A stretch of 64,000 bases of DNA from Myxococcota bacterium (lineage in GTDB: Bacteria > Myxococcota_A > UBA9042 > PHBI01 > JAWLBL01). The stretch is from contig JAWLBL010000009.1 in assembly GCA_041687695.1 (NCBI GenBank), positions 75,634-139,633 of the forward strand, read 5' to 3'. The position numbers and the translations under genes are program-made. Under the pieces are notes generated by a model, which worked only from the letters and a program-made list of their open reading frames with translations, had not been told where the DNA came from and did not search any database. Positions 2,888-4,783 of this stretch are shown here, piece after piece; the stretch's first letter is position 1, and each line of letters starts with the position of its first letter.

Positions 2888-3337
2888 ATGAAGCGATGGA
2901 CCCTGGCCCTCGGCGCGCTGCTGGCCCTGTCCCTCTCGGCGACGGCGTGCGGCGGCAAGAAGGAGGCGACGCCCCAAGCGGACGCGGCCTCCCAGCAGCC
3001 CGGGACGACGCCTCCGGCGACGGCGGACGCCGGCGAGACGCCCGAGGCCCCCGCCGCGCAGCCGGACGCTGGCGCGGCCCCGGCGCCCGAGGCCCCCGCC
3101 CCCGACGCGCAGACGGGGCAGGTGGCACCGCCCGTGCACGACAAGGCGACGATGCAGCGGGCCTACGTCGAGATCTACTGCGCGCAGCGCAAGGGCGAGG
3201 CGCAGGCCCTGCTCGACCTGTACGCCAAGTACGGCTTCACCGACCCCGCGGCCTGGACCAAGGCCTGGACCGAGCACGCGAAGGACGCGGCCTGGGTCGC
3301 GCAGATCACGTCCGAGGCCATCAGCGCCTGCCCCTGA
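2888..3337 (+). CDS. Hypothetical lipoprotein with Pro/Ala-rich linker
   Basis: MKRWTLALGALLALSLSATAC signal peptide/lipobox; AAGGA RBS. Confidence 0.75.
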   Translation: MKRWTLALGALLALSLSATACGGKKEATPQADAASQQPGTTPPATADAGETPEAPAAQPDAGAAPAPEAPAPDAQTGQVAPPVHDKATMQRAYVEIYCAQRKGEAQALLDLYAKYGFTDPAAWTKAWTEHAKDAAWVAQITSEAISACP

Positions 3338-3554
3338 GCGCCCACGGGCGCGCGACGCGAGCGGCTCGCTCAGCGCGCTCGGACGCCGCTCGCGCGTTCG
3401 GGCGCGCTCCGAGGCCCTCGCCCCCTCCAGACCCAGCGGCTCGCCGGCCTGACCCGAATCGGCGGCGGGCCCCGGCTCGAACGTCCCGTCAGACGTTCTC
3501 CGCGACGCCGGCCTTCGAGGCCGCTGACAAGCATGTCATAGCTTGACAGAGGGA

Positions 3555-3583
3555 CTTGGAAGAGGGGCTTGGAAGAGGGGCTT
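3555..3583. repeat. 13-bp tandem repeat CTTGGAAGAGGGG (about 2.2 copies)
   Basis: cttggaagagggg cttggaagagggg ctt read directly. Confidence 0.85.
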
Positions 3584-3585
3584 CG

Positions 3586-3721
3586 AAAAGGGTGCGGCGT
3601 GTGAGCCGGGGAGACTCACACGCCGCGGGGGGAAGAGGGCTCTGAACGGACAGGGGAACCCGTAGAGCCTTCAGGAGGGGAAGAAGGAGGATTTGGGGAT
3701 AGGACAATTACCACACGCACC
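3586..3721 (-). ncRNA. Candidate sigma-54-dependent small RNA with C-rich loops
   Basis: Begins about 12 nt downstream of a consensus -24/-12 promoter; hairpins at 3637-3670 and 3594-3626 pair better on the minus strand (G-U wobbles) and expose UCCCC loops; last stem followed by ACCCUUUU; no convincing ORF; ends are estimates. Confidence 0.5.
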
Positions 3722-3731
3722 CCAGAGTATC

Positions 3732-3748
3732 TGCAACGTGCGTGCCAA
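3732..3748 (-). promoter_or_regulatory. Sigma-54 (RpoN) -24/-12 promoter
   Basis: Minus strand TTGGCACG-CACG-TTGCA is an exact match to TGGCACG-N4-TTGCW. Confidence 0.8.
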
Positions 3749-3955
3749 CCTCGCTCCCCGCGCCGAGACTGCCTCCGCCGCCCTCCTGGGGCGACTCAAA
3801 ATGAAACAGAACGCGCGTTGAATTCCCTTCGGGTCCCCCGAACGGGGGGGAGGGGCTCGGGAGCCGCCGAAAATGGCGGGCTGTCGAGGTGCCACCCATC
3901 CTAGTCTCACATTGAAACATCGCAAGCCCATTGTGAAACACACCCGGAACACGAG

Positions 3956-4783
3956 GTGTCCGTCGTGAGAAACGTCGCCGTCGTCCAGCTCTGCTCGACC
4001 CAGGACATCGAGGCGAACCTGAAGGAGATCGGCCGATACGTCCGCGAGGCGGCGGCGGCGGGCGCCGAGCTGGTCGCGCTGCCCGAGAACTGCGTCTTTC
4101 TGCGCACCGAGGCCGGGACCCAGGCGCCGGTGCAGCCGCTCGAGGGCGAGCTGATGGGCCGCCTGCGCGCCCTGGCCGAGGAGGCGGGCACCTGGCTGCT
4201 GGTCGGCAGCTTCCCCGAGCGGTCACCCGACCCGCGTCGCTACTACAACACGAGCGTCGTCATCGACGGGACGACCCGCGGGGCGCCCATCGTGGCCACC
4301 TACCGCAAGCTCCATCTGTTCGACATCGACATCCCGGGGAGCGAGAGCCAGCGCGAGTCCGACAGCATCATGGCCGGCGACCAGATCGTGTGCGCGGACG
4401 TGGCCGGCATGCGGACCGGGCTGAGCATCTGCTACGATCTGCGCTTCCCGCGCCTGTACTCGGCGCTGGTGGACGCGGGCGCCCAGGTCATCACCGTCCC
4501 GGCGGCCTTCACCGAATACACGGGCAAAGATCACTGGCTGGTGCTGCTGCGGGCCCGCGCCATCGAGACGCAGACCTTCGTGGTGGCGCCCGGCCAGTTC
4601 GGCTGGCACGGCGGCAAGCGGCGCAGCTACGGCAAGAGCGCCATCATCGATCCGTGGGGCATCCCGCTGGCGATGGCGCCCGACCGCACCGGCTGGGTGA
4701 TGGCGCGGCTGGACTTCGAGCACATGGAGTCGGTGCGTCGCTCGCTGCCCTGCGCGCAGCACCGCAGCCCCGTCGTCCGGTGA
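3956..4783 (+). CDS. Carbon-nitrogen hydrolase (Nit1/deaminated glutathione amidase-like)
   Basis: Catalytic E-K-C motifs LPEN, YRKLHLFD, ICYDLRFP; RARAIETQ. Confidence 0.92.
   Translation: MSVVRNVAVVQLCSTQDIEANLKEIGRYVREAAAAGAELVALPENCVFLRTEAGTQAPVQPLEGELMGRLRALAEEAGTWLLVGSFPERSPDPRRYYNTSVVIDGTTRGAPIVATYRKLHLFDIDIPGSESQRESDSIMAGDQIVCADVAGMRTGLSICYDLRFPRLYSALVDAGAQVITVPAAFTEYTGKDHWLVLLRARAIETQTFVVAPGQFGWHGGKRRSYGKSAIIDPWGIPLAMAPDRTGWVMARLDFEHMESVRRSLPCAQHRSPVVR

Follow-up and report, generated by a model that had tools for sequence, protein, structure and literature searches.

The window analyzed here is a 64,000-nt stretch of DNA from a 7.97-Mb genome (73% G+C, 99% complete; referred to as G000), which is the sole member of its own family in an order comprising 18 genomes. 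The predicted RNA gene described below lies on the minus strand in the gap between a lipoprotein-like gene and a carbon-nitrogen hydrolase gene (in the following, nitrilase gene), both of which are encoded on the plus strand (Table 1). The next downstream gene is convergent with the RNA unit in G000 and in most of the order. Past the lipoprotein gene, at window positions 3340-3470, we observed G+C-rich, short, REP-like inverted repeats with weak similarity to six other places in the genome. Another inverted repeat is located downstream of the RNA at positions 3521-3549 and may be the terminator of the convergent gene, or have arisen by chance. It includes a perfect TGACA-N4-TGTCA (3525-3538), which is the upstream motif of a sibling RNA (see below) and one of three perfect intergenic copies of this motif in the genome.

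Table 1 Features of the predicted small RNA locus and its flanking genes (positions refer to the window).
Feature	Position	Strand	Remarks
Lipoprotein-like gene	2888..3337	+	Convergent with the RNA; conserved neighbor; without family match
Two CCCCUCUUCCAAG repeats	3555..3580	-	Past the likely 3' end; only two copies in the genome
Predicted small RNA, ~135 nt	3586..3721	-	+1 from promoter geometry; 3' end placed at the U run after hairpin 2
Hairpin 2, 14 bp, loop UCCCC	3594..3626	-	Terminal or terminator-like; followed by ACCCUUUU (3593-3586)
Hairpin 1	3635..3672	-	Varies among homologues; MFE loop UUCCCCUG
C/U tract, largely unpaired	3673..3709	-	Anti-Shine-Dalgarno words UCCUCC and CCCCUCCU; mean unpaired probability 0.78
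5' motif GGUGCGUGUGGU	3710..3721	-	Best conserved stretch of the RNA; possible seed or protein-binding site; common to the C19 paralogue
Sigma-54 (-24/-12) promoter TTGGCACG-N4-TTGCA	3732..3748	-	TGGCA and TTGC invariant in 17/17 aligned copies; rpoN present
Proximal upstream activator site GACTCA-AAA-TGAAAC	3793..3807		45 nt before the -24 box
Distal upstream activator site GTCTCA-CAT-TGAAAC	3904..3918		156 nt before the -24 box
Carbon-nitrogen hydrolase (Nit1-like) gene	3956..4783	+	Divergent, conserved neighbor; Pfam CN_hydrolase; may start at 3965 instead

The original prediction had proposed a sigma-54-driven small RNA in this gap, with an exact minus-strand promoter, an unpaired C/U tract, two hairpins and 3' repeats, and all of these elements were found where it had placed them. 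The promoter TTGGCACG-N4-TTGCA has no other exact copy anywhere in the genome, and its core is conserved in all aligned homologues. The looser pattern TGGCAC-N5-TTGC occurred 37 times in the genome as compared to one occurrence of the reversed pattern, and therefore sigma-54 boxes are under selection in this organism, which encodes one rpoN gene and 26 enhancer-binding proteins (sigma-54 activators). Scans for sigma-70 promoters and terminators found nothing. The transcription start was placed at position 3721 by promoter geometry, counting from the -12 GC at 3734/3733. Several other sigma-54-like promoters in G000 lack a nearby called gene (C7:257605, C7:261668, C12:52978, C32:65161 and C35:25490); they precede similar TGACAAC-containing sequence, which is a repeated leader or a mobile element.

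The region 3480-3725 folded with a z-score of −4.1 on the minus strand versus −2.7 on the plus strand, and the transcript body alone reached −6.3. The wobble pairs in the stems also favor the minus strand, as the original prediction had noted. The first 50 nt show little or no pairing and no stem common to the homologous copies, and the C/U tract is predicted to be largely single-stranded as claimed. Hairpin 2 was recovered with its UCCCC loop, and the U run that follows it is short in this genome and present in only some homologous copies. Hairpin 1 is present too, with a minimum free energy loop, UUCCCCUG, that is slightly larger than the UCCCCU proposed before. The two CCCCUCUUCCAAG repeats exist, but none were found in the homologous copies whose sequence was compared, and judging from these sequences they are probably private to this genome.

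The promoter had been expected to recur in relatives, and we found it to be kept across the order together with its orientation and architecture. Among 16 nitrilase loci in the order, 12 had an adjoining sigma-54 box (11 divergent as in G000 and one inverted, in genome G001) and four had none. Two metagenomic contigs yielded further copies of the RNA, and in three genomes of genus g7 the RNA unit resides at an unrelated site. A search for a sigma-54 box followed after 11-17 nt by GTGTGG gave matches in 15/18 genomes of the order and 7/89 other genomes of the class (reversed control, 5/107), where the match counted for G001 is the paralogue and not the RNA at the nitrilase locus. A sequence model (R1) built from 17 copies had full-length matches in 17 of the 18 order genomes, 15 of these 17 being part of the training set. 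Three of the places that it matched were outside the training set, one in G016, one in G007 and one being a further copy in G004, each with enhancer-like sites as judged by eye. The only genome missed, G008, is 90% complete and also lacks a nitrilase match. In family f5, the RNA was found away from the nitrilase locus (G004:C322, L296, which is the second copy of G004, and G007:C583, L283) and was accompanied by two or three enhancer-like sites. A pattern scan of contigs returned 106 stretches and 80 loci, which were mostly chance matches, with a syntenic nitrilase gene at 8/80.

Within the RNA, the most conserved part is the 5' motif, in which G.GTGG in the first dozen transcript bases is invariant in the alignment of 17 copies. 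The pyrimidine fraction of the following tract ranged from 0.55 to 0.88 in the 17 copies, and it is the composition of this tract, more than its sequence, that is conserved. CCUCC or CUCCU occurred within nt 9-60 in 10/17 copies; family-f3 copies carry UUCCU instead of CCUCC, and in the genus-g7 copies the anti-Shine-Dalgarno words fall into a predicted stem. Most copies terminate in a strong hairpin, whose loop differs among them (CCA, UCCG, AGU, UCA, GUG). Covariation had been named as a check. In the terminal hairpin, three pairs were changed on both sides among four family-f3 copies (18/500 shuffles) and one pair among three genus-g7 copies (162/500 shuffles), both sets being small and composed of related sequences. 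Hairpin 1 showed paired changes relative to the nearest metagenomic relative (L027) and aligned poorly across families. A MAFFT alignment of 14 copies left the terminal hairpins unaligned and gave no consensus fold.

These comparisons speak against repeated UCCCC loops as the working part of the RNA, and with them against the cuckoo-like multi-loop model of the original prediction: a CCC-containing loop was predicted in the folds of only 8/17 copies, the cuckoo motif CCUCCUCCC was found in 0/17, the terminal loops vary, and neither the UCCCC loops nor the 3' repeats are conserved. The elements that are conserved best, namely paired enhancer sites upstream of the promoter and the 5' GCGUGUGG motif, had been missed. 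As far as sequence comparison can tell, the order has kept the promoter, the paired enhancers, the 5' motif, the C/U tract and the terminal hairpin, and these travel together when the unit is relocated.

The putative enhancer sites match the consensus palindrome GTCTCA-N3-TGAGAC. At least one site was present upstream of the promoter in 17/17 copies, and usually there were two. The proximal site was located 42-45 nt before the -24 box in 9/17 copies and 52-68 nt before it in four more, while the distal site was found ~140-165 nt before the -24 box in most copies. With up to three mismatches allowed, the palindrome occurred in 17/17 copies as compared to 70/1500 random 450-nt windows, the former figure being partly circular because the consensus was derived from the same 17 copies. 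Independent signs are the fixed spacing, the retention of the sites in inverted and translocated copies, and the similar sites seen by eye at the copies outside the training set. As a further independent sign, no such palindrome was detected in the 450 nt before the nitrilase gene in 4/4 loci without the RNA. Among the 27 intergenic matches in G000 (≤2 mismatches), only the two at the RNA locus lie near a correctly oriented sigma-54 box, and therefore the activator seems to be largely dedicated to this RNA. A literature search for both half-sites together with sigma-54 returned nothing evidently about such a site.

Beyond the order, a pattern combining enhancer and promoter matched 15/78 genomes of the class versus 6/323 other genomes of the phylum (reversed control, 4/401), with the sites of G000 itself being too degenerate for this pattern. 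Part of the matches in the class precede protein genes or unrelated structured RNAs. At five loci (L323 in G025, L325 in G029, L332 in G024, L288 in G211 and L282 in G036), a sigma-54 promoter, mostly with the same enhancer, stands before structured, apparently non-coding sequence unlike the RNA studied here. In a bdellovibrio-like genome, L105:1501-1640 contains a sigma-54 box, after which come GTGTGTGTGG, a hairpin and a terminator with a U tail; it has no enhancer of this type and is possibly an unrelated sRNA.

In the sister family f12, what follows the pattern is an RNA of ~100 nt that starts G/U-rich and contains GACUCCCC-like words, a C/U tract and, at its end, a long hairpin; UACCCCC-like words are conserved as well (loci L287, L320-L322, L382-L384, L386, L390 and L391). 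This unit was located 200-450 nt upstream of, and co-oriented with, a gene for a receiver-AAA-HTH activator in 10/18 loci examined, several of the eight missing loci ending near a contig edge. At 5/9 f12 loci an enhancer-like site was found 51-66 nt before the receiver domain of the activator, an arrangement that would resemble the one seen for autoregulation. A FastTree phylogeny, the deepest forks of which were weakly supported, grouped the G000 protein encoded at C17:44714-46144 (TTG start) with these RNA-adjacent activators. The activator lineage (E 1e-118) was detected in 48/78 genomes of the class versus 1/323 others of the phylum, is mostly single-copy, and its members have in common a recognition helix of the RAT(L/I/M)YR type. 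The G000 protein scored below the NCBIfam cut-offs for NtrC, AtoC, LuxO and GlrR. Divergently adjoining its gene is a PAS-HisKA-HATPase kinase gene (C17:42533-44641, minus strand), as at 5/6 other loci of the order. Based on gene order and trees, we consider it reasonably likely that the C17 protein is the activator of the RNA. A regulator encoded at C35 had been picked from a first tree, but a wider tree identified it as a paralogue and placed the C17 protein with the f12 lineage. The syntenic regulator at C9:63625-65061, which is encoded 15 kb upstream of the small RNA, is a possibility that was set aside in favor of C17; a homologue search with its N-terminus returned generic names only.

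Only two well-scoring sigma-54 promoters in G000 precede GTGTGG, and both head RNA-like units. The second unit (C19:21590, minus strand; L165) is ~120 nt long and comprises a hairpin, the conserved word (C)AUGAGUUCCUCCU and a terminator that covaries. This RNA was seen in six genomes of the order (L165, L151, L149, L162, L300 and L301), with a somewhat variable 5' motif, and its upstream site is a different palindrome, TGACA-N-TGTCA. Its conserved core is the exact complement of a Shine-Dalgarno sequence, spacer and AUG, a perfect anti-Shine-Dalgarno element, which strengthens the antisense reading for the pair of RNAs. A perfect TGACA-N4-TGTCA was also found at C7:209029, directly behind C7:209040-210833, a gene for a sigma-54 activator, and some 90 nt ahead of a sigma-54 promoter; this activator is a candidate for driving the C19 RNA. 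Two lipoprotein leaders in G000 (C1:354602-354931 and C3:353786-354841) contain CCACAC plus a 9-11 base complement to the C19 core.

The original prediction of an undescribed, enhancer-controlled non-coding RNA is borne out insofar as the unit is conserved across the order and belongs to no Rfam family at threshold. A scan with all Rfam models gave no gathering-level match at the locus, the paralogue, the g7 loci and the scanned f12 and other class loci, and the families singled out beforehand, Pxr and cuckoo, did not match at the locus either. No description of the family was found in the literature on sRNAs of such lineages and on sigma-54-dependent anti-Shine-Dalgarno sRNAs, a search that covered few subscription journals. 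Qrr1-5 (activated by LuxO) and GlmY (GlrR/GlrK) are stand-alone sRNAs that depend on a sigma-54 activator, an enhancer-binding protein with paired palindromic sites, and Qrr and GlmZ need Hfq. The present RNA resembles these systems in its paired palindromes and sigma-54 box (17/17 copies), its sibling RNA, the activator adjoining the RNA in some lineages, and in being a stand-alone non-coding unit with no conserved ORF and a terminal stem that covaries in small sets. In contrast to them, it has no Rfam match, its candidate activator falls below the LuxO and GlrR cut-offs, and Hfq and CsrA had no match in the 99% complete genome of G000. The last point, together with the absence of a GGAG word from the RNA, also sets it apart from CsrB/RsmZ-type and Hfq-dependent RNAs. 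GcvB uses a G/U-rich seed against C/A-rich translation enhancers, and the 5' GUGUGGU of the present RNA could likewise bind C/A-rich sequence ahead of ribosome-binding sites; however, GcvB is Hfq-dependent and not known to be sigma-54-driven, and our searches revealed no CCACAC sites that were specific or conserved. RsaE and RoxS are C-rich sRNAs with exposed words complementary to Shine-Dalgarno sequences, and exposed C/U-rich words of this kind are also a likeness to the cuckoo RNAs. The latter (alpha-r14, RF02344) are described as two to four adjacent hairpins each with a CCUCCUCCC loop (PMC4615179), whereas the C/U words of the present RNA reside mainly in an unpaired tract.

The closest design is that of Pxr (RF01812) from Myxococcus xanthus. 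Pxr is an RNA of ~110 nt with a sigma-54 promoter, the dedicated regulators PxrR/PxrK (MXAN_1078/1077), C-rich elements and a terminal hairpin (PMC5568312, PMC5684412, PMC10217877). It forms three stem-loops, of which the conserved 5' SL1 has a C-rich loop, is processed to L and S forms, and blocks fruiting-body development. Our RNA shares with Pxr a sigma-54 promoter, here recognized by sequence conservation, a candidate NtrC-type regulator and kinase, C-rich elements, a terminal hairpin and an occurrence in myxobacterial relatives. It differs in that no covariance-model match was obtained and that, where Pxr has SL1, it has a single-stranded 5' third with GCGUGUGG. Its gene is located between the eno/lipoprotein genes and the nitrilase gene, far from the candidate activator in the order, and the lineage is another one. 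Pxr is encoded downstream of pxrR/pxrK and activated by PxrR; the related f12 unit lies upstream of its activator. A genome-wide search with RF01812 gave four weak matches elsewhere, the best with 23.6 bits as compared to a gathering score of 80 bits. The Pxr model had no match over 151 genomes of the phylum, with the controls being equally silent, and a Pxr-consensus pattern had 10 one-mismatch matches over 401 genomes. Judged by these sequence criteria, the RNA is not a member of the Pxr or cuckoo families. It is a new, uncatalogued sRNA family of a familiar regulator kind, with a control side like Pxr/PxrR, Qrr/LuxO and GlmY/GlrR and an output side like the C-rich sRNAs.

Targets were sought genome-wide in G000, among ~5,900 genes from rough gene calls, a set that is incomplete in that the C17 activator, at the least, was overlooked. 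The duplex scans yielded numerous matches of similar strength, the best one (−40 kcal/mol) being at a lipoprotein gene (C52:17539-18312). No conserved mRNA target was found, and all of the four candidate genes checked in orthologues failed: the site in dksA was present at 1/30 orthologous starts, and the CCACAC sites of the POT transporter, HU and acyl-CoA synthetase genes in 1/16 orthologous leaders. CCACAC was about twofold enriched 20-40 nt before start codons, as were other C/A-rich words. Leaders with CCACAC plus an 8-base complement in the Shine-Dalgarno region numbered 5/80 (p = 0.04), yet CCACAC ranked only 79th among 1379 comparable words by this measure, and the lead is weak at most.

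We consider it highly probable that the gap encodes an RNA gene, and we are just as confident that this gene is under sigma-54 and enhancer control. An antisense action of the RNA at ribosome-binding sites is fairly likely, and it probably blocks the translation of messenger RNAs; since no conserved target was found, the blocking of ribosome-binding sites is something that we infer. As a whole, the reading that we favor and hold to be somewhat probable is a stand-alone, Hfq-independent, trans-acting sRNA, which is controlled by a two-component system and predicted to pair at translation-initiation regions. We counted the missing Hfq and CsrA matches for an Hfq-free mode of action, and the predicted pairing of the anti-Shine-Dalgarno words in g7, the UUCCU of f3 and the short U run against this reading. 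According to it, the PAS histidine kinase encoded on C17 would phosphorylate the divergently encoded activator, which would then bind both GTCTCA-N3-TGAGAC sites and cause sigma-54 polymerase to start near position 3721. Transcription would stop after hairpin 2. The unpaired first 50 nt might pair with the translation-initiation regions of several mRNAs, where the C/U tract might mask the Shine-Dalgarno sequence while GUGUGG bound to a C/A-rich stretch close by, so that translation might be lowered without Hfq.

The same gene and control could instead produce a decoy that uses its invariant 5' GUGUGG and its pyrimidine tract to capture either another RNA or a protein, the latter being an RNA chaperone, a ribonuclease adaptor or ribosomal protein S1. 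GlmY and CrcZ are RNAs that act in this way, and a single protein would then receive two signals, one through each of the paralogues. This would fit with a 5' motif common to two RNAs that have otherwise different bodies and enhancers, with the conservation of the tract in composition more than in sequence, and with the failure to find a conserved mRNA complement. However, sponge RNAs usually repeat their binding site and each of the RNAs here has a single motif, G000 yielded no match to CsrA or Hfq, and the exact complementarity of the paralogue core to Shine-Dalgarno plus AUG points to pairing. We regard a decoy as rather unlikely.

An improbable alternative is that the RNA is a distant Pxr homologue and the C17 pair orthologous to PxrK/PxrR. 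The two RNAs have in common a sigma-54 promoter, a dedicated NtrC-type activator and kinase, a length of ~110-135 nt and a terminal hairpin (PMC5568312, PMC10217877), and the genus-g7 copies contain GGUGGUUCCUCCC, which is near to GGuGGuUccccccc of the Rfam Pxr consensus. But RF01812 remained silent at the locus even at E 10, and GGuGGuUccccccc forms the top of the stem and the loop of SL1 in Pxr, while its counterpart here follows the 5' single strand. Moreover, one study describes Pxr as being of recent origin within the Cystobacterineae, downstream of pxrR (PMC5568312).

Even less probable is a cis-acting element, namely a leader or attenuator of the downstream gene, or a terminator for the lipoprotein gene combined with an enhancer serving the nitrilase promoter. 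The f12 unit is co-oriented with the activator gene that follows it, and the unit in G001 points towards the nitrilase gene, as such an element would. Against this, the downstream gene is convergent in G000 and most of the order, the unit and its enhancer have been relocated jointly to unrelated sites, the nitrilase genes that have no RNA beside them also lack the enhancer (4/4), and the wobble pairs favor the minus strand. Finally, a small protein is highly improbable, as the original prediction had already held: a 72-aa ORF with a TTG start (3707-3489) exists, and several copies open with GTG CGT GTG GTA (MRVV) at +1 or +2, which could be a near-leaderless GTG peptide, but the ORF has no Shine-Dalgarno sequence before 3707, no Pfam or NCBIfam match and no conservation among copies, no frame or length is common to the 17 copies (first GTG/TTG frames span 2 to 115 codons), and the changes in the terminal stem are compensatory.

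Extending the favored sRNA reading, we also considered an old module that is spread over the class. One PAS-kinase/NtrC-type pair would mainly make this RNA and a second activator its GUGUGG sibling, and both signals would be integrated on shared mRNAs by an Hfq-free, two-handed grip, with the 5' motif on an upstream C/A-rich stretch and the C/U element on the Shine-Dalgarno sequence, in a pseudoknot-like complex formed in trans. In this complete form the proposal is speculative, and we deem it unlikely.

Pxr is a well-studied myxobacterial sRNA, and the present family is similar in design in that a sigma-54 two-component system is dedicated to a C/U-rich RNA. A similar design is kept across the order, and in altered form across much of the class, in uncultured relatives that are seemingly without Hfq. 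The enhancer palindrome of the family is defined, candidates for the activator and the kinase are at hand, and there is a sibling RNA with an enhancer of its own, all of which such predictions usually come without. Its transcription side is testable in a heterologous host, and as the kind of regulator is familiar, we see the family as a solid addition and no surprise. The direct targets of Pxr are still only predicted (PMC11928866). Should the C17 activator turn out to be an orthologue of PxrR, the module described here would have given rise to Pxr as a late offshoot, and this would open a comparative route to the direct targets of Pxr.
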